DNA of 14,049 nt. Origin: Amoebophrya sp. A120. Taxonomy: Eukaryota; Protista; Dinoflagellata. A model generated the notes under the pieces. That model saw nothing but the letters and a program-made list of their open reading frames with translations, was not told the DNA's origin and searched no databases. Position numbers and translations under genes: made by a program. Positions 1-14,049 of the stretch are shown piece after piece. Position 1 is the first letter of the stretch. Each line of letters opens with the position of its first letter. The stretch covers positions 1,802,579 to 1,816,627 of the forward strand of contig CAJINV010000015.1 of the NCBI GenBank assembly GCA_905178155.1. Reading direction: 5' to 3'.

Positions 1-185
1 GCCGTCCCAGGAGCTCTTGTGACTGTCTCTCGGTAGAGATCGCTTTGCCCGTGCTTATTCCACTCAGAGTTTGCTGGGTAGGTGGCTACCGTTTTAAGTT
101 TATAAACGAATGGGACGCCCTGCCCTTAGCCTTCCAACATGACAAGTCGCGCACTCTTCCAGACCCAGACAATTTTACATTTATA
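1..185. mobile_element. Introner-like element E0 (family B), right part only
   Basis: Right TIR TTCCAGACCCAGACAATTTTACATTTATA ends at 185 and matches the family B end (e.g. 8599-8628). Exon sequence resumes after it. The left end is outside the window. Confidence 0.8.
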
Positions 186-187
186 AT

Positions 188-3100
188 CTGCGAGCTTTTA
201 CCAACGTGATCGCGACACAAGATCCGATATCCCACACAAAAAAGCTTCTAGGGCTACTAGCATAGTATGTTTGTCATGCAAATAAATAAGACAAGCACAA
301 AGAAAATACGCTTCCTCAGGGGGATCGACGCCCTTGGTCTGTTCTTTGAGATTGATATGCGGCACGACAGATTTTTTTGTGTACTGGATTTTGCATGACA
401 AATTAGTGTCGTGGCGACATGCTATAATCTTTTTTCTGTGTGATATCCGAAGACGTTCATCGACGCCTCTATGCTGTCCTTCGCCTTTTCCTCGTCCGTG
501 GATATCAGCAGGTCCGTCGGTTTATCCTGTGCCAAAGTATTGCTCGTACTATAACTTGCATTACAAATTGTTTATAGCATGATTACAAATTGAATTTGTA
601 ATGCGGATTTGACTTAACAAAAAGATTTGTAATGCATGATTGTAATTAGTACGGGCGCGATACTTTTGCAGTGCATACGGATTCAAGTCCTTCGAAGAGG
701 ACTATCAAAAGGAAAAACCCGCCCTCCCCATATCGAAACGAAGTTTCTGATGCTGGATTTGCGTACACAAATCAGATTTGTCTTGCTGCTGAGGACTGCA
801 GACCCATATCAAGCCTGAGCAGAGAGGCTTTGGCCTAGGCGCTTAGCATGAAAAACGCCCTCGCTGTAGGCCCAACAGCATGACAGCCCGCCTGTATAAT
901 GCGGGGGAGACTGTGGAGTTGCCTTCTTGCAAGACAGACATGCTTTGTGGCCACAAATCAGCAACGCAAATCTTCGAAAACGTGCCTTGTCGATATGGGG
1001 AGGGGGGATCTTTCCTCGCGATAAGGACGGGAAAATGTACTGCGTCGCACCGATCACGGACAGTATTCAAGAAAAAAACTGTGTAAGTGTATAATTTGTG
1101 TTGCAGAAAATCAAAAACTGTTACACTTGTCATGCTGGACATGCATCAGAGGCAATTTTCGTGCGTGTTTTCACGTACTAGCTACGCATGACAGGTTTTG
1201 TCATGCAGAGCAAACTTGAGATGCTATTCCTCCAAAAAAACTTACACTTGCACAGTTTTTTTCCTGGATAGACAGCAGTATGGCACTGATATGAATCGCA
1301 AAAAAAGTGTCGTACTCGTACTGATTGCAGATTATATGCATGACAAATCCTCTATTTCCGTTGAAGCTGTTGAAACAGCATTTTTACATACGAATTTCAC
1401 TTGTCATGCGAGCCTACTTGTTCGTAGCAATTTATAGTACTAGTGCGATGCAGCTTTATCATTGCATGACTGAGTATGGAAGTGTCAAAATCGAAATTGA
1501 CAAAATCGAAAAACTTGTGATGCACAAAATCGATTTCAATTGGAGCATCAGTTTCCAAGTGGCGCATGACAAATTTCGGGAGCACCCAAATCCAGTCTGT
1601 CATGCTGTTTGGGCAAGGAAGACTGCTTCTGTCGTGCTACTATGGCAGCGCATTGCATACTCCTAAACAGGCTTGCAATCGGTCTCATTTGCCTCCTCCC
1701 CAATACAGGCCATCAGTGCCCTACATCTTATGCATCACAAATTATTTCGATTTTGTTGATTTCAATCCTGACACCCCCATACTGAGTTCCCCGGTCCACT
1801 TCTGGGCGGTCGGGCAGGATTGCTGTGAATCCAGGAGTGTCACATGCAAAAAATGTGTCTGGGTCTGGAAGAGTGCAGGAGTTTGTCATGCAGATTTTGC
1901 ATGACCCGCGACCACGTCTGTGATGCATTACTAGCATCACAGATTCTGCGAGAGCTTTCTGATGCCCATACCACATGAGCAATGCCGTCTCGACACCCGC
2001 GTAGCAAAAAGTGGGCCTCCTCTAGTACTGTTTATGCAATACAGATTTCATGTAGAATCCAAAGGCAGCATTGCAAGTCGGCATACTTCCAGAAACAGAC
2101 ACGTTTGCATTTGATAGGGAGTCACTTCACCTGCGGGGACGTCCACAACGCGAAGGCACACGCGGGTATCCTGTGCAAAAGTATCGTACTCGTATTGCAA
2201 TCATGCATTACAAATCCTTTTGTTAAGGTAAATCTGCATTACAAATTTTATTTCTCATGCTGAGGAAATTTGTAATGCATGACGTGGCCTGGGTACGCAC
2301 ATACGACTCGGTGCGCCAAATCGTATGTGGGGCGTTACAATTTTCGCGCTTTTTTCATTGAGAAAACCCGCCAAAGAGCAGCACCGAGCCCGGTGCGGTT
2401 TGTAACGTATGGCAGCACCGAGCCCGCGAAAGTATGTCTTTTTGCCCACCTACAAAATTTGTATTGTCGTGGCGCGCCTTCACAATACATTTTGGCGCAC
2501 CGAGGCGGGGGGCGCCGTTTTTCGAAAACGCAAAGCGCCCCCGCAGCTTGTTCGCGTTTCTTTGCCACTCCTCGCTCTCACATGGGAAGCGCCCGCGCGC
2601 CTTTGCTATTTTTGCAGGGGCGGCGGGCAGCTTAAGATTAAGTGGCCCAGGACTAGTCTCGCGCGTTTGTGTCAGGGGGGTCGAGCGCGCGTGTTGAGTC
2701 GCCCGCCCCGCTGGCGCGCCTTGGGCTGGTGAATTTCTTACCTTGCGTTCGGGCTTGGGCCATGGTCCGGGCTTTGTTTCCCGCCTCCTGCGAGTTGGAG
2801 CACCTGCGCGCGCCTTGCCCCCCCGCGTTGTTGGGGGCTGGCGCGTTACCCGCTTCCGCCCGCGGGTCCAAGTCCCCCCCCGCCCCCCCCCCCGAAAAAA
2901 ATACTCCGTTGGCGCCGCGGCCTATTTTTTGTTTTTTCTCTTTTCCGCCTTCCTGTTCCGCCTGTCTTTGGCGGCGCCCGTGCATACAACTTGGCGCACC
3001 GAGGCCGCCGGCCTCGGTGCACCGAGGCGGCCATTTCGCAAAATCGCAAATTTTGGCCTCGGTCCGCCATTTCGTATGCGCGTCCTAAAGAAAGTTCTTC

Positions 3101-4155
3101 TAGCCTCGGTGCGCCAATTTGTATTGGCGTACCCAGGCCACGACACTACCGAGGCGACGTCATGCATTTATACGAATGCGATACTTTTGCAGTTCATAGC
3201 GGGGGTGGTGGTATGAAATAGATTTTTATTTTTTTACGTATACTACGTGATTCCCGATTCTCTTTCTTCCTGGTCTTGCTGTGGTTATGCATGGCAGAGT
3301 GCGAGAATACCAATACGGCCACGGCCACGCATGCAGATTTTTGGGGCATCATGGCAATTGAAGATTCTCATGGGAGCTCCAAGTCAACCAACTCAAAATG
3401 TAGTCACGCTCACCCACGACAAATCAGGTTCTCCGTCCCGAAATGTTCGTGCCTCCGATGGCCAGTTGGATAGTGGAAAAGCAAGACAAACTCTTGGAAC
3501 AGTACAGCCGAGCGGTTACCCTTGCGCAGAACGTTTATCCCCGAGAAAAAATATTCTGGCAGGGCATCTTTGCAGGAAGTGATAAAACGAACTTCGAAGC
3601 TACAACAAAACCCATAGAGCCTGGGGCCTAAACTATGCAAGACAGAATTGTTTTGTGGCCCATTCTATGCAAGACCTAATTTGTCAATTGTCATGCATTT
3701 AAATTATTTTTTGCCTGTACAAATCAATGCGGCAACGTGCTAGCGTTTGTCTTCACTGGGATAAGGTGTTCGGCATAGCAGAAACTGCGGAGGATCCATC
3801 GATTACTCCAGCGCAGGGAACCACCTCTAGTGACACCCCAGCCAGCAAATCCGGCGCAATAATACCAACCACCTCGGATGACCAGAAGCACATGAAGCAC
3901 GTTTTCGTCCACTGGACCTTGACGCCATTGAAAACCAAATCTGCATACAAATCGGCAGCGGACGCCTGGTTCAGCTTTATCACCATCTTCGGTCTGATCT
4001 TTCTCTACTACCTGGCGTATTACGGGTTTGGGTTGACCGGAGGCGGTAATGGGAGCGACTCCAGAGCTTCGACAAGCTCAAAGAACAAGCACCTGCACAG
4101 CTTGAGTCCGCCCTCGTCGTCACCCATGAAAAGTGCGGTGGGGGACTTTAGGTGA
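188..4155 (+). CDS. Gene 1, 5'-partial and spliced: uncharacterised membrane protein with a YCVAPI...FWAVGxDCC...FxCG motif and a C-terminal transmembrane helix
   Basis: Join, keeping the left DR copy: 188-227, 451-522, 683-702, 1029-1063, 1276-1289, 1474, 1787-1837, 2122-2166, 3204-3210, 3428-3535, 3769-4155 = 780 nt, with no internal stop and TGA at 4153-4155. Translation: LRAFTNVIATQDPKTFIDASMLSFAFSSSVDISRSVGFKSFEEDGKMYCVAPITDSSMALSSPVHFWAVGQDCCESRSHFTCGDVHNAKAHAGVVVLRPEMFVPPMASWIVEKQDKLLEQYSRAVTLAQNVFGIAETAEDP...KHVFVHWTLTPLKTKSAYKSAADAWFSFITIFGLIFLYYLAYYGFG...VGDFR*. The motif order resembles an alveolate uncharacterised family I recall; no search was run. Confidence 0.88.
228..445. mobile_element. 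Introner-like element E1 (family D), non-canonical intron
   Basis: TIR TATCCCACACAAAAAAG / CTTTTTTCTGTGTGATA. Perfect DR TCCGA at 223-227 and 446-450. Removal restores D-P-K-T-F. Confidence 0.92.
523..677. mobile_element. Introner-like element E2 (family A)
   Basis: TIR TATCCTGTGCCAAAGTAT / ATACTTTTGCAGTGCATA. DR CGGTT (518-522) vs CGGAT (678-682); the difference is synonymous (Gly). Removal gives V-G-F-K. Confidence 0.92.
703..1023. mobile_element. Introner-like element E3 (family E)
   Basis: TIR TATCAAAAGGAAAAACCCGCCCTCCCCATATCGA / TCGATATGGGGAGGGGGATCTTTCCTCGCGATA. Perfect DR AGGAC at 698-702 and 1024-1028. Homologous to 9427-9746 in the opposite orientation. Confidence 0.93.
1064..1270. 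mobile_element. Introner-like element E4 (family F)
   Basis: TIR TATTCAAGAAAAAAACTGTGTAAGTGTA / TACACTTGCACAGTTTTTTTCCTGGATA. Perfect DR GACAG at 1059-1063 and 1271-1275. Confidence 0.93.
1290..1468. mobile_element. Introner-like element E5 (degenerate, family A-like)
   Basis: Left end TATGAATCGCAAAAAAAGTGTCGTACTCGTA; eroded right end ...CATTGCATG. Perfect DR ACTGA at 1285-1289 and 1469-1473. Its removal eliminates an in-frame TGA. Confidence 0.82.
1475..1781. mobile_element. Introner-like element E6 (family C)
   Basis: TIR TATGGAAGTGTCAAAATCGAAATTGACAAAATCGAAA / TTTCGATTTTGTTGATTTCAATCCTGACACCCCCATA. Perfect DR CTGAG at 1470-1474 and 1782-1786. Inverted homologue of 9065-9371. Confidence 0.93.
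1838..2116. mobile_element. Introner-like element E7 (family B)
   Basis: TIR TGTCACATGCAAAAAATGTGTCTGGGTCTGGAAG / CTTCCAGAAACAGACACGTTTGCATTTGATA. DR AGGAG (1833-1837) vs GGGAG (2117-2121). Removal joins CCESR-SHFTCG. Confidence 0.9.
2167..3198. mobile_element. Introner-like element E8 (family A) carrying a nested 881-bp insertion
   Basis: TIR TATCCTGTGCAAAAGTATCG / CGATACTTTTGCAGTTCATA. Perfect DR GCGGG at 2162-2166 and 3199-3203. Without 2281-3167 it is colinear with 5313-5463. Confidence 0.93.
2281..3161. mobile_element. Nested GC-rich non-autonomous TIR element unrelated to the TAT...ATA families
   Basis: Flanked by ATGCAT on both sides (2275-2280 and 3162-3167). Ends are GACGTGGCCTGGGTA / TACCGAGGCGACGTC. 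There is a perfect 16-bp inverted repeat (2283-2298 vs 3127-3142) and multiple GCACCGAG/CTCGGTGC subterminal motifs. No credible ORF. Confidence 0.85.
3211..3427 (+). other. Canonical GT-AG spliceosomal intron (217 nt)
   Basis: GTG|GTATGA...AAATCAG|GTT. Removal joins AGVV to VLRPEMFVPP in frame. No terminal TIR or DR pair. Confidence 0.78.
3536..3763. mobile_element. Old introner-like element E9 (family D-like) whose DRs allow GT-AG boundaries (intron 3533-3765)
   Basis: Decayed TIR TATCCCCGAGAAAAAATATTCTGGCA / TGCTAGCGTTTGTCTTCACTGGGATA. DR ACGTT (3531-3535) vs AGGTG (3764-3768). Removing 233 nt joins LAQN-VFGIAE in frame. Internal TTGTCATGC at 3688. Confidence 0.8.
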
Positions 4156-4874
4156 TGCTCGGTGCGGCCGCGGATCCTGAGGAGGAAAAGCGTTGTTACA
4201 ACGGTATGAATTGAAAATGAAACCGAACAAGGTGGCACAGTGACAGTTTTTTCCCCTTTCGTTCTGTATTGAGAACGCAACGGCGCCGCAAAATGAAAAA
4301 CGACGGCCAAAGAAGCCGACTCGAAAGCAAAAAGTAAAAGCTCATGCGAAATAACTTTCGGTGCGCATGTAGTTATGCTGTCCGCCTGCTTGAAGATGAG
4401 ACCACCGGATTCATGATCCGTGGTCCTCGCAAATTCAACATTCTCGTTGTTCTCTCGGGACCTGCGTGCTCTGCGTCGGTCCTCAGAATAGCTCGTGGAA
4501 GAAGTCGTTGCTCTAGCATCTGCTGCGCTTCAAAACTCACTTCGAAATAGTTCCGCGAGTGTGATGACCGATGTTGTTCTTATCGAGCGTCTTGCATAAT
4601 TTGTAGACAAAATGACAAGACGAAGACACAGAAACAGCACAAAGAAGAGGGTAAAAACGAGACTTGCGTAGGGGATGAAAGAATGCAACGTATCAACTAC
4701 GACTTTTAATCATGCGTCAGTAGCAAAGTCAAATTATCCCGTATCCGTTAAAAAAGGTTCTTGATGCTCGCGATCGAGATGAAACAAATGGACGACCAAG
4801 AAGCAGTTGTGGCTTGCACCGTCGTGGCCAGTTTTTGATAAACCCCACCAAAAATATAAAAAAAACCCAAGAAG

Positions 4875-7800
4875 ATGGAGGATTTCCTCACTGGTATCCA
4901 AGATATCTCCAGTTCTGCTTCCACCAGTCTCCTCCCGCTCTCGCACCCCGTTGGCTTGGACTTTGTCGTGACCACGTCACTGCAGAATAACCTGTATCAA
5001 GTGCAAAAATGTCTGGGTCTGGACAAGTGTAGACTTGTCGTGCAGATTTTCCATGACCCATGAGGTCTGAAATGCGGGACCTAGCATGACAGACATTCTG
5101 TGAGATCCCTATCATGCCTATCCTGCAGGAGAAACTCCCTTCCAACTTGGTCAAAAGTTATACAGCTTTTGGCAGTCATGCAACACAGATTTTTGCATGC
5201 TTCAGATTTACCATGACAAGTTGCAATCGTCCAGACCCAAACATTTTTGCAATTCATAACCTGCAACTAAACGCAATCCCGGAGGACAAGCAGATCGTGT
5301 TTTTGGAGTCGTTATCCTGTGCAAAAGTATCGTACTCGTATTGCAATTATGCAATACAAGTTAAAGTTTCCTTCTCAAGTCAAATCCGCATTACAAATTT
5401 CATTTTTCATGCTGAAGAAATTTGTACTGCATTTATACGACTACGATACTTTTGCAGTTCATAGTCGTTATGATCCTGTGCAGAAGTGTCCTCGTCGTGC
5501 CTACTACAACTGGTGATTCATTTTTTTTGCAACATCACAAATTTCTGATGCTAATCGCGACGAGGAACAAAATTTCTCATGCTGATTTGCTTGAGGAAGG
5601 ATATCGATATCGATATTGATTTGTGTTTGTGTTATTTGTGTTGCCGTATTGCAATATAGAAGTTTGCTCACTACTCCCCAAGAGATCTGAGTCGAGCACC
5701 GCCCGAGATCTTACTTGGTGAATATCTGAAACAGCTAAAAGATAACTCTTTTTGAATTTTTGCAGCGCGCGCATGCTTGCGCTGCCTGGGGGCTTCGCCC
5801 TCCCCACGCTCGCGAAGCTTTTTGGACTTTTCCCCGCCCCTGTGGCTTTTTTTTCCATTGCGTGCAGTGTAGCCTCGGCAGGCGATTCGTTTTCCCCGCG
5901 GCCGGCTTGCGTGCTGATGTGGGCGCCGTTGCAGTGTTTTCCGTTTTTTTTGTTGCTCGCGTGGCGCGGGCTTCCATGTCTGAGCTAAGGCGAGCGGCTC
6001 CGCGTTGCTTTGTGCTTTATTTTGCCGGGGCTTTTTGTGCTTTCTTGCTATTTTATGGCAGCAGGAACATGAACAATTGCCCGCCCCTGCAGTTGGCGCC
6101 CTTTTGCTCTTTTTCGTGTCGAATTTTTTGCCGCTGCTCTGTTTTTTTTTCGCTAGTAAATATTAGCCCGCTAGTAGTAGTACATAGTCTAGCCCGCGGC
6201 GCTTGTGCCTTTCCGTGCCTTTTGGTAGCGTGCCTGCCAGCGCAAACGGTCGCGGGCCGTTTTCCGTATTGCAGTGGCTTTTGCACTGGCTCGCGCCGGT
6301 CTGTGCACTTCCCGGCCCCCTGCGCGTATTTTTGTGGGCCAAACCGCGCTGCGCCGGTTGTCTGTGTTTTTCGCACTTTGCTTCCAGAGCTAGCGGCGCG
6401 ACTGTTTCGCGCAAGCGCCCTGCATTAGCACCAAGCTAGGCTCTTCGCTGGTTTTCCATGTAATGCAATCCCGGAGGCCGGTCCGGCGTGTCAGCCAGCG
6501 GCCTGCTTTTTGATGTGGGCAATTTTCTGACGTTTTTCGCTTCGCGCACTGACCGCATGGCGTTTATCTTCATGCCCGGGCGCAGAGGAGTGACGCGGCA
6601 GCGTTTTTCGCTCCTTTTCTGCAAGTGCGCAGCTTTGTCTTTGTTATTCTTTTTGTGCTGCAGCGCCAGACCCGACCTACCAAGGAAGCACGAGAGGCGC
6701 CGCAGTTGCTAAGGTTCTGCGCTAAGGGTGGCGACGTTGTCCATGTTCTGCCTTAGTCTTCCTTTTTTCTTTGTTGTCTTTTCGCTGCTTTTTTGCCGTA
6801 TTTCGCTCATTTTGTTGCGTTTTTGTGCCTTTTCGAGCTACGCGGAGCTTTTTCGGCGCGTTTTCTTTTGGTCTAAAAACAAACAAACTGTCAGCCTGGG
6901 GATGGTTATTCTCGCCTTCTTTTTGCCGTACTTCATTGGCTCACTCTGTCGCGCTTTTGCGCCTTTTTAAGCTGAAGGAAGTTGCCTTGGCGCATTTCGG
7001 TCCTCGGAGCGGCCGAACTGTCTGGAATTGGCCTGGCGGGTGCGATACATAGCGCCGCCGCTCTGTGGACTTGCTTCTGCAAAATCACTGGCGCGCGCCT
7101 TGTTGCGCTTTTGTGAGTGTCTTTTTGGAGGGTTTGCAAAGCGTTGCACTTTTTCGCCTATTTCGATGGCTTTGCGATGTTTTTGCCTTAGCTTGCGCCT
7201 TTTATTTGGTGCGTTTTCACCTTTTCGAATAACTAAGTGAAGCCCATGGCCCACATGTGTCGCATTTGCGGGCTTTTGACTTAACGCGGCCGGTTCTGCG
7301 CTGTTTTTCCTCGCATTTGGATCCTTTTGCTGTGTTTTTGTGCTTTCCCAAGATCGTTTTGCTGTGTTTTTGGGCCTTTTTTGCGGACTTTTGCGGAGTT
7401 TGAGGATTTTCGACACATTTCGGGCCTAAAAAAGTCCGCGCCGTCTGCTTTTGGCTTTGCCCGTGAGTCATTGCCAGCGAACGCGCTGCAGCGCTTTGCA
7501 AAAACATCGGCGCCCGTTTTGGTCTGTTTTTGGCTGGTCGTGGTTAGTGCGCAAATGGTCGCACTTTCTTACTTATTTTGATGGCTTTCCGACGTTTTTG
7601 CTTTAGTTTGCGTCTTTTGGTGCATTTGTGCACGTTCCAGGCCTAACTAGGTGAAGCCCACGGCCCGAATGTTGCGCGTTTTTGGTTTTTTGGCGGAACA
7701 AGAGCAATCTTGCTGCAAAATACGCCGCATTGTCATCAAAGAGACGCGCTCTTTCTTTACAAAGAGCGTGACCTTGTTGCCATCGGCACGCGGGTCGCTG

Positions 7801-10800
7801 TGGTTTTGGCTGTTTTTCGTTGGTGTGCAAAGTGTTGCGCTTTTGTGTTTATTTCAATGGACTTGCGTCCTTTTCGCCTAAGTTTTCGCTTTTTTGCGCA
7901 TTTGCGCAATTTTTACGCTTAACTAGGTGAAGCCACCGTGCGCATTTTCGTCGTTTTTTTCCTTTTTGACTTAACAAAGCCATTTTTGCACTAAAATGAT
8001 TCTACTTAGCTTCACAAAGGTGCGTTTTTACCTTAAGAAAATTGGCATTTTTTTTTGCATGTAATGCATGTTTGCAATACAAGTTAGAGACGACTACGAG
8101 TGCGATAGCGATACTTTTGCAGCGCATACTCTTCCTTTTTCGAGAAGCGCACAATCCAGCTTTACAACTTGCTCTGGCCAGAGTACGAAAATCTGCCCGA
8201 TCGAAGCTCCTGTGGCCACTACTCGAACCGCAGAGCAGTCGCAGGCGGGGCTGGTGGGGTCATCTCTGCTAGTGGTCAACATGGCAGCCGCGGCGGTCGT
8301 GGCGGGGCTGCCTCGGGAAAGAGCGGCAGAGGTAGCAGAGGTGCGGCAAGTAACCACTGGAAGCAGATGAATTTATCAAATGTAAAAGTGTCTGGGTCTG
8401 GAAACTTGTGATGCTGGGTGGCGTCTCATGATGAGACCAGAAATGCTGGCTCAGCATCACAAGTTTCTGAGCTTCTAGGTGTTGCCTATTCTGCATGACA
8501 AACTGCGTTTCTGTATAATCACAGAAAAATGGAGCTCTTGGGTAACTTGCATGACAGATTTAAGAGCCATGCCAGACAAGCATGACAAACATGCATTCTT
8601 CCAGACCCAGACATTTTTACATTTGATAGAATTCCCGGCGGAACAATAGCAGAGGGAGGACTTCTGGGGGAGTGGGAGTGCGACCGACTGGTAATCATGT
8701 TATTGAGGATATGAAATGTAAAAATGTCTGGGTTCTCTGGAAGGTTGGAACTTGTGATGCTAACTTTGGACTCTAAAAAAATCTGCATTGCATGACCAGT
8801 GACAGGAGTCTAGGTTGTGCTACGCGGGGACGAGGGCATTTGTCATGCGGAGTAGGCATCAGGAAGTCCTCTAAAAATCTGTGATGCTAGGTTGTGCGTT
8901 ACAGACATCCTGGGTCATGCAAAATATGCATGACAAACCCGGCAATCTCCCAGACCCAGACACTTTTGCATTTGATAGAGGACGATAATTTCGACAGTGC
9001 TACAACCCCGCCAAGACGACGAAAGACCTATCCAGCGTCCAGTTACTACGGGCGTGGCGGGGGGTATGGGGGTGTCAGGACTGAAATCGTCAAAGTTGAA
9101 ACGATTTGTGATGCATAAAATGCAACCCACAGAGGGCCTGTCTTGCAGAGTAGGCAAGGGAGGCAGATTGTAAGCCTGTTGAGGGGTAGAAATAGAGCTG
9201 CTAAAATAGCACGACAAAAGGCGCCTCCCTTACCCAAACAGCATGACAAACTGGATTTAGGGACCTCCAAAATTTGTCATGCGCCATTTGGAAACTGGGT
9301 TCCAACTGGCATCCATTTTATGCATGACAAACCATTTCAACTTTGTCGGTTTCAAACCTGACACATCCATAGGGGGCGCGCAAACAGCTGCAGTTCAACT
9401 TCCTCCGATGAGGAAAGTTCCAGTTCTATTACAATGAAAAATCTCCCGTCGACATCCCAATACTTAACCGGAAATTTGTGTAGCATGATTTGTGATCACA
9501 AATCACGTTGCCATGCTGGGAGGGAAGTAGGGATGCGGTCTGTAGTGCTGGTTGGCGTGGGTCATTTTTGCGTCTTCAGCGTGACAGGAAGCAACTGGAA
9601 ATGGGAAACAGCATGACAAATCGCCTGCAATTGAGGCTGCGACTGCGTCTCTTGGCCCTCTAGCAATACAACTGGATTTGTGTACGCAAATACAGCATCA
9701 CAAGTTTCCTTTTCGATATGGGGAGGGCGGATTTTTCGTCTTAATAAGTTCGGACGGGGACAAGAGCGGCACCGGTGCCGCGCCGTATCAGCGATCATCC
9801 CCGGGCGCAGCTGGGCAGACGACGCCAAGGCATCATTCGATCTCAGGCTCCTCGAGTAGCTCCACGTCGCATTCTATGCAATACAAATTTCCCGTACATG
9901 TACAACATGCATCACAAATTTCACTATTACTTAGAGCAGACAACTTGTCATGCTGAACAGAATCGAAGGGAAGCTTTAGCTTTGTCATGCAGAAACGGCA
10001 TTTGAATTTGTACGTGTACGGGAAATTTACTGTGGATACATTCACAGCATTCGGCGTCCACATCTCAGCTCGCTGGACTGCAACACCAACACCAGCAGCT
10101 CAGGCCACGGCAATTCCTGTACCCCGACGGGGCGAAGGGCTGCTTTCTTCGCTCGTTCCTGAAGTGCGGAATTCTCGCTGGCCTGTTGCTCAGCGTTTCC
10201 TCCGTTGCTAGTGTCGTTCTATTGAAGTCGTCTGGACGAACAGCGCAGCCTGCACCCTCGAGAAGTGGAACTACTTCAACGAGCCGGCACTTACTCCTCG
10301 CGAAGATTCTTCTCCACCACCTGCGCAACGCTACTTCCTTCGGCGCCCTCATCGCCGCCTACAACACGTTGCTGTACTGCATCAGCAACAAGTCCGCCTA
10401 CGTCCGGGGGACCTACGCGTGGTTCGCGGGGCTTGTTTGCGGCTTGGCGATCCTGATTGCGCCGGAGGATGGACAGCACTGGGGCACCGTGTTTTGCACG
10501 TCGCGGGTGGTGGACGTGGCTTTGCAAGCGGTGTATTGCTCGATTGCAGATCATTGGAAGAAGAACACGAAGGAGAAGATGCTGACAGGCGGAACAGAAG
10601 TTGCAGGTGCTGCACAACAAGAACAGCGGGAGCTGCACCAGCACCTTTCGACCGGGAACCCGGGCACGAGCACGTCGACAGAAGTTGTACACGAAAAGAA
10701 TCAGAGAACCACTACACCGGTCTACTTCAAAAACACGCCTGAAGCTGAACAACAGGAGCATCAGGTTGTAGATGAAACGAACACAGCCAAGACATCTTCA

Positions 10801-12064
10801 AATAAAAGTCCCAAATCATCGTCCGACGAGACGAGTCGCTCGAACTCCGAGATCGGCGCGATCCCGTACCTGGACCTCATCCTCACCTTCTTCGGGACCT
10901 TATCCATTGCAAATATCTCGGGGTCTGCAACAAGGTTCGAAGAATTTTTCATGCTGTCTTTGGATTCTGGAAAAATTTGTATTGCATGAGCCTCAAAATC
11001 AATAAAAAGGAGTCCAGTTTCTTGTGCTACGCTGGGACGGCATTACTTCTCATGGGGAATAGGCATCAGGAAGGGTTCTAGAAATCTGTGATGCTAGGCC
11101 ATACATTACAGGCATGACGCGCCATGCAAGATATGCATGACCAGTCTGGCAATGTTCCAGCCCCAGAGAATTTGCATTTGATAGACCTGGCGGGTGTACC
11201 ACTGCGTCTGGACGGATAGCTCGGTCCTTATCCCCTGAAAAGAATTTTTTATACCATCCCCATCCACTTTTTGCAAGACTACAGACACAGACTTTACTTA
11301 CATGCTTTGCATGACAAATTGGATGAAGATGGTGAATTTTCAGGGCATAGTCCTGGACGTCAGACTCAAAAACATCATCGCGCGGGAGTTCGGCGGCGCG
11401 CTGGAAAAGCGGTTTATGCATCACAGAAGTATCGCGCGCGTAGTAGAAGAAATCGCATTACAAATTTGGTCCGTGCAGCAGTGAGAAAAAAAAAATCTGC
11501 TTTCTCATGCTGATTTTGGAGATCTGTCGTGCATGTTAGCGATATATGTTTACGTGCGAGAGCGATAGTACTGTTGCAACGCATACGGTTGAAATCGGAG
11601 CAGCTTCCCTTCGGAAAGTCCGTCGTGATGAAATGGCGCAAGGAAAACTTGATGAGTCTTGCGCTATCGCTGAAAAACTTCCTCAACTGCCTTTCCCGGT
11701 CCGTGAAACAGTTCGCATTGGCGTCCTTGGTCCCGAAAGTCGCCCTGTGGGGTTTGGTGCGGCTCTGTATTCACAGGGAACTTGCTATATTTTTGTCCTC
11801 GTACCAGTTCGCACAGAACAAATGCTGTTTTTCCTTGATGCCAAAACTTTTCTTGAATCCTGTGCAGCACAGCATGAAAAATGACATGCTTCATAGTGCC
11901 GTTTGTTTACGGAGAGGAAATTTGCATTGCATTTTGTACACCGTGTACGGCAAAAATATTGTGTTTGCATTGCATACCTTACATCCTAATTTTCGTGAAG
12001 AAATTCGGAGCAAGACGAACGAGCTTGACGTCCGCGGGGAGCGTCTTACCGAGCGGGGGAATCA
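4875..12064 (+). CDS. Gene 2, 3'-partial and spliced: TMEM135-like (Tim17/Tim22/Tim23/Pmp24 superfamily) multi-pass membrane protein with a long Ser/Gly-rich N-terminal extension
   Basis: ATG at 4875 (aagATGg, in-frame TAA at 4857). Join: 4875-4994, 5264-5312, 8134-8373, 8634-8709, 8983-9064, 9377-9426, 9752-9874, 10044-10900, 11189-11228, 11355-11414, 11591-11767, 11982-12064 = 1957 nt (about 652 codons) with no stop. It contains GCFLRSFLKCGILAGLLL...LRNATSFGALIAAYNTLLYCIS...AWFAGLVCGLAILIAPEDGQHWGTVFCTSRVVDVAL, a pattern typical of TMEM135/Tim17-like helices (recognised by eye). The frame of the last exon is less certain. Confidence 0.82.
4995..5258. mobile_element. Introner-like element E10 (family B)
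   Basis: TIR TATCAAGTGCAAAAATGTCTGGGTCTGGAC / GTCCAGACCCAAACATTTTTGCAATTCATA. Perfect DR ACCTG at 4990-4994 and 5259-5263. Confidence 0.93.
5313..5463. mobile_element. Introner-like element E11 (family A)
   Basis: TIR TATCCTGTGCAAAAGTATCGTACTCGTA / TACGACTACGATACTTTTGCAGTTCATA. Perfect DR GTCGT at 5308-5312 and 5464-5468. Confidence 0.94.
5469..8128. mobile_element. Introner-like element E12 (family A-like) expanded by a nested insertion of about 2.46 kb
   Basis: Left end TATGATCCTGTGCAGAAGTGTC, right end GATACTTTTGCAGCGCATA. DR GTCGT (5464-5468) vs CTCTT (8129-8133), 3/5 match. The two ends together resemble the short copy at 11415-11585. Removal restores FLES-SFFEK in frame. Confidence 0.78.
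6750..7990. repeat. Degenerate T-rich tandem repeat array inside the E12 insertion
   Basis: AACTA(A/G)GTGAAGCC occurs at 7231, 7645 and 7921. Each copy is preceded by related blocks (GCAAA..G.TGC(A/G)CTTT, TATTT(C/T)(G/A)ATGG, TTTTGC.T(T/A)AG.TT). Region 6770-6880 resembles 7320-7433. Boundaries are approximate. Confidence 0.65.
8374..8628. mobile_element. Introner-like element E13 (family B)
   Basis: Near-perfect 30-bp TIR TATCAAATGTAAAAGTGTCTGGGTCTGGAA / TTCCAGACCCAGACATTTTTACATTTGATA. Perfect DR GAATT at 8369-8373 and 8629-8633. Confidence 0.95.
8710..8977. mobile_element. Introner-like element E14 (family B)
   Basis: TIR TATGAAATGTAAAAATGTCTGGGT / ACCCAGACACTTTTGCATTTGATA. Perfect DR GAGGA at 8705-8709 and 8978-8982. 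The interior is homologous to 10901-11183. Confidence 0.94.
9065..9371. mobile_element. Introner-like element E15 (family C)
   Basis: TIR TATGGGGGTGTCAGGACTGAAATCGTCAAAGTTGAAA / TTTCAACTTTGTCGGTTTCAAACCTGACACATCCATA. DR GGGGG at 9060-9064 and 9372-9376. Confidence 0.94.
9427..9746. mobile_element. Introner-like element E16 (family E)
   Basis: TIR TATTACAATGAAAAATCTCCC / GGGCGGATTTTTCGTCTTAATA. Perfect DR AGTTC at 9422-9426 and 9747-9751. Confidence 0.92.
9875..10038. mobile_element. Introner-like element E17 (family G)
   Basis: TIR TATGCAATACAAATTTCCCGTACATGTACAA / TTGTACGTGTACGGGAAATTTACTGTGGATA. Perfect DR CATTC at 9870-9874 and 10039-10043. Confidence 0.93.
10901..11183. mobile_element. 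Introner-like element E18 (family B-like)
   Basis: TIR TATCCATTGCAAATATCTCGGGGTCTGCAACA / TGTTCCAGCCCCAGAGAATTTGCATTTGATA. Perfect DR GACCT at 10896-10900 and 11184-11188. Confidence 0.93.
11229..11349. mobile_element. Introner-like element E19 (shortest, 121 bp; family D/F-like)
   Basis: TIR TATCCCCTGAAAAGAATT / AATTTTTCAGGGCATA. Perfect DR GTCCT at 11224-11228 and 11350-11354. Confidence 0.92.
11415..11585. mobile_element. Introner-like element E20 (family A-like)
   Basis: Ends TATGCATCACAGAAGTATCGC / GCGATAGTACTGTTGCAACGCATA. Perfect DR CGGTT at 11410-11414 and 11586-11590. Removal gives EKR-LKSEQ. Confidence 0.92.
11768..11976. mobile_element. Old introner-like element E21 (family G-like)
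   Basis: Decayed TIR TATTCACAGGGAACTTGCTATATTTTTG / CAAAAATATTGTGTTTGCATTGCATA. The right end resembles the reverse complement of the E17 left end. The DR is poorly conserved (CTCTG vs CCTTA), so the boundaries are less sure. Confidence 0.65.
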
Positions 12065-14049
12065 TATCAAATGTAAAAGTGTCTGGGTCTGGAAGAATGC
12101 AATTTGTCATGCTAAATCTGAAGCATGCAAAAATCTGTGTTGCGTGAAAAGAACAGAGCAGAGGCTGGCCGTAGGGGAAAGCGATCCAGCAAAACAGCAG
12201 AGGCCCGCACTGAATGAAATTAAGGGGGGAAAAGGAGAGAAGGAGGCTGCCCAGAGGATAAATGAAAAGCAAAAGGAGCGGCGCGATAAAGAGGCACAAG
12301 GAGGCAGATTCTCAGCAGTGCAGCCAAAAGCAAGAGCGTCGCTAGAAAGCAAGGGCATAAGCATAGGGATGGCGCGGAGTAGCACCGGCAAAGAGGTAAG
12401 AAGTACGGGAGGAAATGACAAGCCGACGGCTCAACGGAAGCCAAAGAAGCAAGAGGAAATAAGAAAAAAGGAAAGCAAGACGGAAAGAGGGCCGGCCGAA
12501 GAAACACGCGCAGAAGTGGACCCGCTGACATCGCGAGCACCGTACTCCTTAGAGTTTTCGAACGGAGGGCATCGTAGATACTCAAAAGAGGCAGAGGCGA
12601 CTCAAGGCCGCGGAGCAAGTAGCTCTTCAGGACAAAGAGGAAGAGAGAGGAACAGTGAAAATGCAAGGAGGAGGAACAGCCCGGAGGGGGGAGAAAAGGG
12701 CTCAAAGAAAAGTGTGGCGGAGGATGGTGGCACAATAGCAAGAAAAAGGCAAAAGAGTAAAGAGCAAGAAAATAGTAAACAAAAAGCGGCGGGAGAGGGG
12801 GAAACGCTGGCGCAGACAATGCGCAGCGGATTATTCGGAGATCGCTGCAAGACAGCACAGGAGGGGGGGCGGGGGGACGACTTCAGGCGACGCAGGATCC
12901 CTATGATTGAAGTGACATAGTGACGGACCGAAAATCGGACACCAGGCCGAGCGACTGAAAAGTCTGAGAAATGCACTCCGGAGATTTTTGAAAAACGCAC
13001 AGCATCGAAATCATAGAAAAAAACGAAAACACTATTTCCCGTCTGAATAAAAAAAGAAAAGGCCCGGCAGGCTCGAGGACTGCCGGAAAATATGACCCGG
13101 CGCGTTCGCCTTAAGATCCTGCCCCCATACTTCTAAGATCGTTTCAGCGCAGTCAGATTAAGGATCTCCAGGGGATCCCTTAAGTTGCCAACGAACGCGA
13201 CAGGGCCAAGATCACCCCGAGAAGCTTCAGGCGAATCGCGGGGCGCGTTTCAAAATGTCCAAACTTTCAAACAGGCGGCGACGATAGGCCAAGAAGATCG
13301 ACCGCACTCAGAGAAACAAGCGCGGCGCGGATCCAAAAAAAAAAAAAAACGAAGGTAACAGAGCAAAACGCTGCGCAGAGGTCGAGGAGCTGAGAAGAGA
13401 AGCCGCGAAGATTTCACACCATGCGCCGAAGTAAAGCCGTTGGCGTCGCGGGTTAAATTGGCAGGAGAGTGAAATTGAGGACGGAGTTTTCAGCGAGATA
13501 AATGGGGAGGCGAGTTAAATGTATGACCGGGCAGCAGCAGGCTCGCGAGCCTGTGAGTCGAGGCTGAGGCTGGGCGGTTGGTATTTTATACCGACCAGAC
13601 CCAGTATCTATCCCGGTAGCCAGGACCTAGATAAGATGAGGATCTGCGTCAGGCCCTCGGGTTTGACGTTTTTCCTTTTTCTTCCTTGGTCCCAGGGAGT
13701 AACGCCCCTGCCTTTGGTAGTTGTCTGTCTAGCTGTGTACAGCTGTTTGGAAGGGAAGAGGTGCCATTCGCCCTCGACCCGCGTCTGTCTGTCTATCTGT
13801 GGGGGAAGAGGTGCTATTCGCCCTCTGCCTGTTGGTCTGTTTTTCGGGGAGAGGAGCCATTCGCCCTCGACCCGTGGTTGCAGAGTGTGGAGGCTGCCAT
13901 TCGCGCCTCCACTGCTTTTTGCAGCTGATCCCGGATCCTTTTGGCTCGCGCGAGGTCGGCTCTGTGGCACTGGCGGTTTGAACCCGTTAAACCTAAGAGA
14001 GGCGGAGCGAGGGACTTAGGGGCCCGGTTTGGTTTGTGGTTTTGGTTTT
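12065..14049. mobile_element. Introner-like element E22 (family B), left end plus a nested insertion of more than 1.9 kb; right end outside the window
   Basis: Left TIR TATCAAATGTAAAAGTGTCTGGGTCTGGAAG. Region 12065-12147 matches the reverse complement of about 5176-5258, then the sequence switches abruptly to unrelated purine-rich DNA. No matching right TIR occurs before the window end. Confidence 0.75.
13690..13910. repeat. Degenerate minisatellite with units of about 40-50 bp
   Basis: GGGAAGAGGTGCCATTCGCCCTC at 13753, with variants at 13803, 13846 and 13889. The intervening sequences are related to each other (GACCCG, GTCTGT). Confidence 0.75.

Follow-up and report, generated by a model that had tools for sequence, protein, structure and literature searches.

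Transposon-like introns with paired ends and a probable common cut position in two genes of Amoebophrya sp. A120

Locus and element inventory

The 14,049-nt stretch of Amoebophrya sp. A120 analyzed here (the window; assembly GCA_905178155.1, CAJINV010000015.1:1,802,579-1,816,627, forward strand) carries parts of two plus-strand genes that are interrupted by short transposon-like elements. The 3′ part of gene 1 (186-4155) comprises 259 codons, ends with TGA at 4153-4155, and corresponds to residues 131-394 of protein P0002 (394 aa). The 5′ part of gene 2 (4875-12063) comprises 652 codons from the ATG at 4875, continues past the window, and corresponds to residues 1-652 of protein P0001 (1125 aa). 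Used as queries, the two largest exons returned a single match each (among 5436 and 579 candidates), to P0001 at 100% and P0002 at 99%, both labelled Amoebophrya sp. A120. Based on these matches, the interrupting sequences are the introner elements of Farhat et al. 2021 (PMC7789003; this and all other papers are cited from the accessible portions of their text), the class to which a sequence-only reading of the window had assigned them.

That reading counted 23 elements, 21 of them complete, with 16 perfect 5-bp direct repeats (DRs), and our scripts reproduced these counts. Nine complete elements lie in gene 1 and 12 in gene 2, and two partial ones lie at the window ends (1-185, a right end, and from 12065). 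In gene 1, perfect DRs flank the elements at 228-445 (TCCGA), 703-1023 (AGGAC), 1064-1270 (GACAG), 1290-1468 (ACTGA), 1475-1781 (CTGAG), and 2167-3198 (GCGGG), and imperfect DRs flank those at 523-677 (CGGTT/CGGAT), 1838-2116 (AGGAG/GGGAG), and 3536-3763 (ACGTT/AGGTG). In gene 2, the repeats are perfect at 4995-5258 (ACCTG), 5313-5463 (GTCGT), 8374-8628 (GAATT), 8710-8977 (GAGGA), 9065-9371 (GGGGG), 9427-9746 (AGTTC), 9875-10038 (CATTC), 10901-11183 (GACCT), 11229-11349 (GTCCT), and 11415-11585 (CGGTT) and imperfect at 5469-8128 (GTCGT/CTCTT) and 11768-11976 (CTCTG/CCTTA). The left repeats comprise 19 distinct 5-mers among 21, in keeping with the claim that they are nearly all different. Inverted ends beginning with TAT and closing with ATA had been described for all complete elements; both are present in 19 of the 21, the exceptions being 1290-1468, which ends in ATG, and 1838-2116, which starts with TGT. 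Ungapped, the inverted ends are complementary at 9 to 19 of 20 positions. Pairs combining TAT...ATA ends, a perfect DR, and an inverted complement of at least 12 of 20 positions numbered 15 in the window, compared with a mean of 0.055 (maximum, 2) in 200 dinucleotide shuffles. A scan for inverted and direct repeats free of these constraints returned 448 pairs, mostly chance, and was set aside.

All but two of the complete elements are 121 to 321 nt long. The longer ones contain inserts: 2167-3198 consists of a 145-nt core and a nested element (2281-3161; 881 nt, 61% GC) whose inverted ends read GACGT and whose duplication is the 6-bp ATGCAT, and 5469-8128 holds a T-skewed insert of ∼2.4 kb (∼5590-8020). 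DNA contigs carry copies of the former family from which the nested element is missing (a skip of 887 nt). Within the window, 11 element pairs are 62 to 78% identical, and 30,496 contigs of one DNA-like run match the window, as repeated families do; Rfam gave 0 matches. The elements are likely nonautonomous DNA transposons of the miniature inverted-repeat transposable element (MITE) type, given their short length, terminal inverted repeats (TIRs), constant-length duplication, and lack of coding capacity.

With 2735 coding nt for 23 elements, the density is one per 119 nt, close to the ∼120 nt first estimated. The statement that nearly all junctions cannot be placed as GT-AG also holds: of the 21 elements, a single one (3536-3763) permits such a placement on the sense strand, and as a class the elements lack the borders of canonical U2 introns. 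Two further elements allow a CT..AC placement, which is GT-AG on the wrong strand.

A single rule, removal of the element plus one DR, had been said to rebuild 259 and 652 aa of open frame. Both frames were obtained, with one amendment. In gene 1 the rule alone gives a longest stop-free stretch of 172 aa, and a plain GT-AG intron (3211-3427, plus strand; 217 nt, starting GTATG, with no inverted ends), itself seen as a joint in likely RNA, must be removed as well. Frame retention had also been put forward as a real test of the rule. The removed lengths do leave remainders of 0, 1, and 2 modulo 3 in 6, 7, and 8 elements, so that 15 of 21 are not multiples of 3, but stop-free frames alone are weak evidence: with the removed lengths randomized modulo 3 (20,000 trials per gene), the frame still stayed open in 10.3% of trials for gene 1 and 0.45% for gene 2.

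Absence of the elements from likely transcripts

Eleven runs were listed, none of them recorded as RNA, and four of them (X1, X3, X4, and X9) were compared with the window. X3 and X4 are RNA by the guess of the tool, and the four runs guessed to be RNA share ∼0.4 of the window's words. The RNA and DNA evidence alike consists of assembled contigs, in which rare variants are lost.

In X4, gene 1 is contained in a single 1445-nt contig (depth, 117) and gene 2 in a single 4188-nt contig (depth, 17). The skipped sequence equals the element plus 5 nt, to the base, in 15 of the 15 joints listed (three more lie beyond these), which together take in 19 of the 21 elements and the plain GT-AG intron; at 228-445, for example, 223 nt are skipped. 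The precise removal from RNA that had been predicted from the letters agrees with every listed joint of this likely RNA run. No joint is listed for 11415-11585, for which removal follows from contig arithmetic: the predicted 100 letters separate 10895 from 11586 in X3 as well as in X4. At 11768-11976 the left side alone is visible, the contig pieces of both runs stopping at 11765. The gene 2 spacings in X3 (56, 331, and 100 letters) agree with those in X4. Elements swollen by inserts to 1032 and 2660 nt are still exactly removed. At the left end of the window, the X4 contig has a loose end before 186, where the DR copy (186-190) of the partial element 1-185 begins; at the right end, X4 gives no cover at 99% likeness from 12195 onward.

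Two junctions involve almost no exon. Between 1290-1468 and 1475-1781, a net single base is present in the gene 1 contig (9 letters between the elements, 708 removed). Elements 5313-5463 and 5469-8128 adjoin with a zero-length exon between them and disappear together, as 2821 nt. One of these two was inserted exactly at the left repeat of the other, and their removal could proceed as one outer intron or in two steps.

The DNA-like run X1 covers 30 of 30 bins of the window. Single X1 contigs traverse 228-445, 3536-3763, and 11415-11585 together with both flanks, at a depth of 41 to 47, which is that of unique sequence, and none of the 15 X1 joints listed (1028 further rows lie beyond these) is an element-plus-5 skip. 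Since X1 reads through the elements and X3 and X4 skip them, the elements stand in the DNA and are absent from likely transcripts, and we consider it very probable that they are removed at the RNA level. The sequence-only reading had named DNA-level excision, in the manner of ciliate internal eliminated sequences (IESs), as its alternative: the elements would be excised in some stage or nucleus, with transcripts made from the cleaned DNA. Such a process would be in keeping with ends of the transposon type and with a target that is exactly restored, the kinds of X1, X3, and X4 are not recorded, and a minor excised fraction is possible because contigs drop rare variants. Against it stand the three elements kept unbroken in X1 (one run, contigs) and the lack of any element-plus-5 skip among its listed joints. 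X3 and X4, moreover, have no cover of intergenic sequence or inserts, as expected of RNA, and X4 also skips the GT-AG intron. With no element-free DNA allele among the listed joints of X1, membership in the ciliate-type IES class was rejected, and we regard DNA-level excision as barely credible.

Homologues provide a further comparison. Rebuilt gene 1 aligns colinearly and without a break over its junction-dense part with P0003, P0004, and P0005 (63, 44, and 31% identity), as the sequence-only reading would have it; for gene 2, a full-library search with P0001 gave two partial matches besides P0001 itself, too little to compare. Gene 1 equals residues 131-394 of P0002 save for AVQFI, five extra P0002 residues (222-226) at the 2167-3198 junction that are absent from the X4 contig and from all three homologues found. 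The homologues' lack of AVQFI and their unbroken alignment indicate that the precise element-plus-5 rule is right and that the public gene 1 model is likely off at this point; the comparison suggests that the extra residues are likely an annotation slip at an intron of >1 kb. Rebuilt gene 2 matches P0001 at 652 of 652 residues if the cut is placed after DR base 2, 3, or 4, and 1 or 2 residues differ if it is placed at 0, 1, or 5. P0001 and P0002 are not independent of X3 and X4, as these runs may be the data behind the public models.

Of the raw RNA reads of X9, those that touch the window (5 of 30 bins) match related element ends only and none of its exons. Reads of this run bear the arm 12065-12147 in different surroundings, with 179 loose ends following 12147, so the element family exists in another strain or species.

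Related elements in a second assembly

We scanned metagenome contigs with an element end, which gave at least 150 stretches (about 460 estimated), and analyzed 148 loci (L001-L148). All 78 loci among the matches listed are on contigs of JACKZZ01, with families 67 to 83% identical to the window elements; viral contigs gave 0 matches to the element end. The 148 loci hold 268 unique strict elements, and a relaxed search found 359, 291 of them with a perfect DR. Among 257 end pairs selected solely for their inverted complement, 189 had an exact DR of 5 bp and none had one of 6 bp, and no 6-bp duplication occurred among the 268 strict elements. Positions 11 to 14 of the ends are A in 450 to 498 of 536 ends. 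GT-AG was placeable in 14 of 168 cases. Four long end pairs had longest frames of 86 to 198 aa, none of transposase length, although no dedicated transposase search was made.

These DNA loci permit a frame test for the removed length. For 298 elements in loci of >1.5 kb, we asked whether the frame was open for 300 nt on both sides after removal; the strand was set by the longest frame and is wrong in some cases. The frame was open in 34% of cases after removal of the element plus 5 nt and in 33% after removal of the element plus 8 nt, compared with 7 to 10% for +0, +3, +4, +6, and +7.

This result bears on the possibility that reverse transcriptase, by switching template across hairpins with direct repeats, produced the skips and that the real RNA retains the elements. 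Template switching classically occurs where a hairpin is combined with a short direct repeat, and the removal evidence comes from cDNA-derived contigs only. Yet frame preservation at +5 is a property of the second assembly's DNA. In the window, one contig skips every element of a gene, including stretches of 1.0 and 2.8 kb, the skipped product is colinear with homologues from other sources, and stops break the unspliced frames. We judge such an artifact to be very improbable.

Position of the cut

A perfect DR hides the position of the cut, but an imperfect one reveals it through the base that is retained. Taking k as the number of left-copy bases kept, the five imperfect repeats of the window allow k = 4-5 at 523 (left base kept at DR position 4), 4-5 at 5469, 2-4 at 3536, 3-4 at 11768, and 1-5 at 1838 (left base kept at DR position 1). 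The sole value common to all five is k = 4, so the intron is likely N-TAT...ATA-NNNN. From these five repeats, a single register with the cut after DR base 4 appears probable. The mirror register, with the cut after base 1, fits none of them except the uninformative 1838.

At k = 4, all 22 left ends have T at position +2, the +1 base is T, G, A, and C in 8, 7, 3, and 3 elements, respectively, and 0 of 21 introns end in AG; a purine follows the inferred 3′ border in 10 of 21. The GTATG start of the plain intron aligns in the same register with the T-A-T that the elements have at +2 to +4. The gene 1 exons become 72, 20, 35, 14, 1, 51, 45, 8, and 107 nt long, so the register implies a 1-nt exon at 1473. 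In the second assembly, 26 imperfect cases with a frame gave one stop each for k = 0, 1, and 5 and none for k = 2 to 4. Of 125 cases there, 57 have the inferred cut at a codon boundary. A GC-bias test on mismatched repeat bases was uninformative.

Several points weigh against a single register. It depends on four informative junctions, and independent random cuts would share some register with a probability of 0.12. The upper bound at 3536 can also be read as an ordinary GT-AG junction at k = 2. The bound at 11768 rests on leftmost placing of the joint, on the contig pieces ending at 11765, and on P0001, the joint row itself not being listed. All nine predominant noncanonical pairs of A120 in Table S4 of the genome paper start with N-T (PMC7789003), in agreement with the register, but these pairs depend on how the authors' aligner placed ambiguous junctions.

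The same limits favor a reading in which removal from RNA is exact in length and the cut floats within the 5-bp DR, with no one register. The legend of Fig. 3 in the genome paper words the cut as floating within the repeat, and its text describes splice sites whose position varies with respect to the hairpin (PMC7789003); the small number of informative junctions and the GT-AG fit of 3536-3763 after base 2 point the same way. A floating cut does not account for base 4 being common to all five imperfect repeats when the mirror register fits only the uninformative one, for the N-T start of every Table S4 pair, or for the stops that exclude cuts 0, 1, and 5 once each in the second assembly, and we think it unlikely. 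In the accessible portions of the literature searched, we found no statement of a fixed cut register for A120.

Folding, orientation, and proposed mechanism

The ends of the short elements are predicted to pair. The mean pairing probability was 0.61 to 1.00 in 18 of 19 short elements and 0.29 in 1290-1468, and folding z scores (25 shuffles each) ranged from -1.0 to -10.6, with z < -2 in 16 of 19. Copies of the same family occur in both orientations, namely 1475-1781 and 9065-9371 (78% identity), 1838-2116 and 8710-8977 (75%), 523-677 and 5313-5463 (71%), and 4995-5258 and 8710-8977 (69%), and all are skipped. The suggestion that a TIR- or structure-guided process removes the elements therefore holds in outline, as both orientations are removed and the ends pair, although the enzyme is still only proposed.

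Our account of the system is that transposon elements are spliced from pre-mRNA by an altered U2-type spliceosome that uses the paired ends as a ruler and cuts after base 4. The anatomy of the elements suggests that a DDE-type transposase with a 5-bp stagger would have inserted them; scans of the window and the second assembly found no transposase enzyme, and no genome-wide search was made. The 5′ site would precede the left inverted end by 1 nt and the 3′ site would follow the right inverted end by 4 nt, with the element bringing T-A-T at +2 to +4 and the target supplying a free +1 base and two free last bases. As the element plus 5 nt is what is removed, the coding sequence would be restored at any insertion site. 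The end hairpin may replace recognition of AG and of the pyrimidine tract and define each intron singly, and introns defined in this way could leave 1-nt and 0-nt exons to be handled in successive steps. An altered U2-type spliceosome is favored by the +2 U in ordinary register, by the retention of most spliceosomal parts in A120, and by a tunicate precedent. A120 has 83 of 89 spliceosomal proteins together with U2, U4, U5, and U6, and 35% of its introns are GT-AG (PMC7789003); Fritillaria is a precedent for a changed U2 spliceosome (PMC13326754). We moderately favor spliceosomal catalysis, and the chances of the account as a whole we consider evenly balanced.

Other observations speak against it. 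U1 was not found in A120, according to the accessible text of the genome paper (PMC7789003). The motif GCATNACAAA, of which 62 of 67 near-matches lie inside element arms and 1 lies in exon or intergenic sequence, lacks the 3′ bias expected of a branch point (39 versus 44 mismatches). On the sense strand of the second assembly there is no excess of G (32 versus 29.9 expected at +1 and 31 versus 30.2 at -1). Only A at -2 is raised there (40 versus 27.4 expected of 99; p = 0.007, uncorrected, among 20 cells), and it occurs in just 1 of 21 window elements. Nor does the first base of the inverted end show clearly stronger conservation on the 5′ side (1 versus 4 changes of 186).

Two candidate signals were accordingly dropped. 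A preference for protosplice sites, with G at +1 and a terminal AG, was unsupported in the second assembly. GCATNACAAA as a branch point was set aside for now; it lies ∼40 nt inside both ends, its conservation is no higher toward the sense 3′ end, and a role in transposition is more likely than one in branching.

The same RNA-level removal in the same register could instead be carried out by a nonspliceosomal, hairpin-guided cut-and-join reaction as in euglenids, with release of full-length circles. Euglena introns depend on a complementary motif set at fixed spacers from either border (5′-N3CDG...CH'GN5-6; PMC12501133); the corresponding spacers here would be 1 and 4 nt. Removal in both orientations, the lack of bias toward a +1 G, an AG, or a branch point, the 1-nt and 0-nt exons, and the failure to find U1 in A120 (PMC7789003) all suit such a machine. 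What argues for the spliceosome instead is that the inferred 5′ site has T at +2, in the register of a plain GT-AG intron in the same gene, that A120 has a nearly full spliceosome and 35% GT-AG introns (PMC7789003), and that A at -2 is weakly in excess. We regard a euglenid-type machine as less likely than not, though not far behind the altered spliceosome.

Leaving the catalyst aside, we lean toward the view that one positional code, N-TAT...ATA-NNNN, governs the splicing of tens of thousands of transposon insertions in A120. In this code the hairpin would set both cuts, the +2 U alone would be fixed, the G and AG would go unread, and either orientation and exons of 1 or 0 nt would be tolerated; the catalyst would be a spliceosome that lacks U1 and is blind to AG, or else a second splicing machine, guided by hairpins, that has converged on the euglenid one.

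Comparison with known systems

The element system and its removal from RNA are already known and were published for the A120 genome. That paper reports 29,850 repeated noncanonical introns in 1,954 families, with inverted repeats of 8 to 20 nt (TAT, 7 bases, and AAA), DRs of 3 to 5 nt over the borders, and hairpins (PMC7789003). The window elements are alike in having TAT followed by seven variable bases and an A run, a 5-bp DR, non-GT-AG borders, families, a hairpin, and RNA-supported removal. There is no difference in kind; the accessible text leaves the border as one that "remains unknown" and is "variable," whereas one register is inferred here, and the published validated introns span 40 to 1000 nt, whereas two window introns are longer (PMC7789003). 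Another paper uses A120 as its showcase example, with introns in the tens for each gene, and also mentions a TIR family that has integrase-like frames (PMC12130899). In their accessible portions, PMC11282704, PMC11453091, and PMC12005148 repeat the A120 introner account and offer no mechanism, and the 2021 paper (PMC7789003) and a 2024 review leave it at an "alternative splicing mechanism."

Euglenid nonconventional introns resemble the elements in their non-GT-AG borders, base-paired ends, fixed motif spacers, and likely MITE origin (PMC11282704, PMC12501133). They differ in having CAG/CTG at +4 and about -6 to -8 and a purine after the 3′ border, whereas the window elements have TAT/ATA at +2 and -5 and any base there. 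Circles are reported for euglenid introns (PMC11282704, PMC12501133). The introns of Fritillaria borealis are likewise MITE derived, with TIRs and target site duplications, non-GT-AG, and precisely removed (PMC11282704, PMC13326754). In that species, however, U1 is present, the borders are mostly AG-AC or AG-AT, and U2AF paralogues and m6A changes are implicated; in A120, U1 was not found, and in the inferred register the element introns are unconstrained at +1 and at their final two positions. IS3EU/GingerRoot transposons share TA..TA termini and terminal inverted repeats with the elements (PMC10045372), and membership in that group was rejected, as their duplication is usually 6 bp (PMC10045372) and here it is 5 bp. 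With no transposase found in the sequences scanned, the elements are not assigned to any superfamily.

This analysis adds a specific, modestly supported splice code that can be tested, and it points to very short exons. Imperfect DRs offer a cheap readout of the true cut from existing RNA sequencing data. If the register is true genome-wide, the apparently chaotic splice dinucleotides of A120 reduce to one rule, the gene models can be fixed, and exact coordinates become available to tell a relaxed spliceosome from a second splicing machine. The system also illustrates how a transposon can turn harmless in coding sequence without protosplice sites, and if the positional code is true, insertions of this transposon clan that duplicate 5 bp would all be silent immediately.

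Other features of the window

The gene 1 product is a predicted membrane protein with no Pfam family. At gathering level, Pfam had no match for three exons, P0001, P0002, or the frame 12150-12917. For the gene 2 product, the ESM Atlas returned TMEM135/Tim17-like clusters (0.84 to 0.89), making such a protein a candidate only, to be taken as a lead.

Within the plain GT-AG intron, the element motif recurs with two mismatches at 3414-3423, 4 nt short of the intron end; to judge from its sequence, this intron may be an old, decayed element.

The partial element at the right end of the window (12065-14049) has a family-like left arm (12065-12147), followed by an unrelated insert that runs to the window end. 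The inserts at ∼5590-8020 and 12148-13140 show strong strand skew (AT skew, -0.42 and +0.53, respectively); their internal repeats recur at intervals of 415 and 276 nt, respectively, and both inserts are repeated a few-fold in the DNA-like run. In 13517-14049, short repeats occur around positions 13753 and 13846, and both X3 and X4 have contigs in which 13536 is joined to 13956 (90% likeness); this part is possibly the end of another repeat family.

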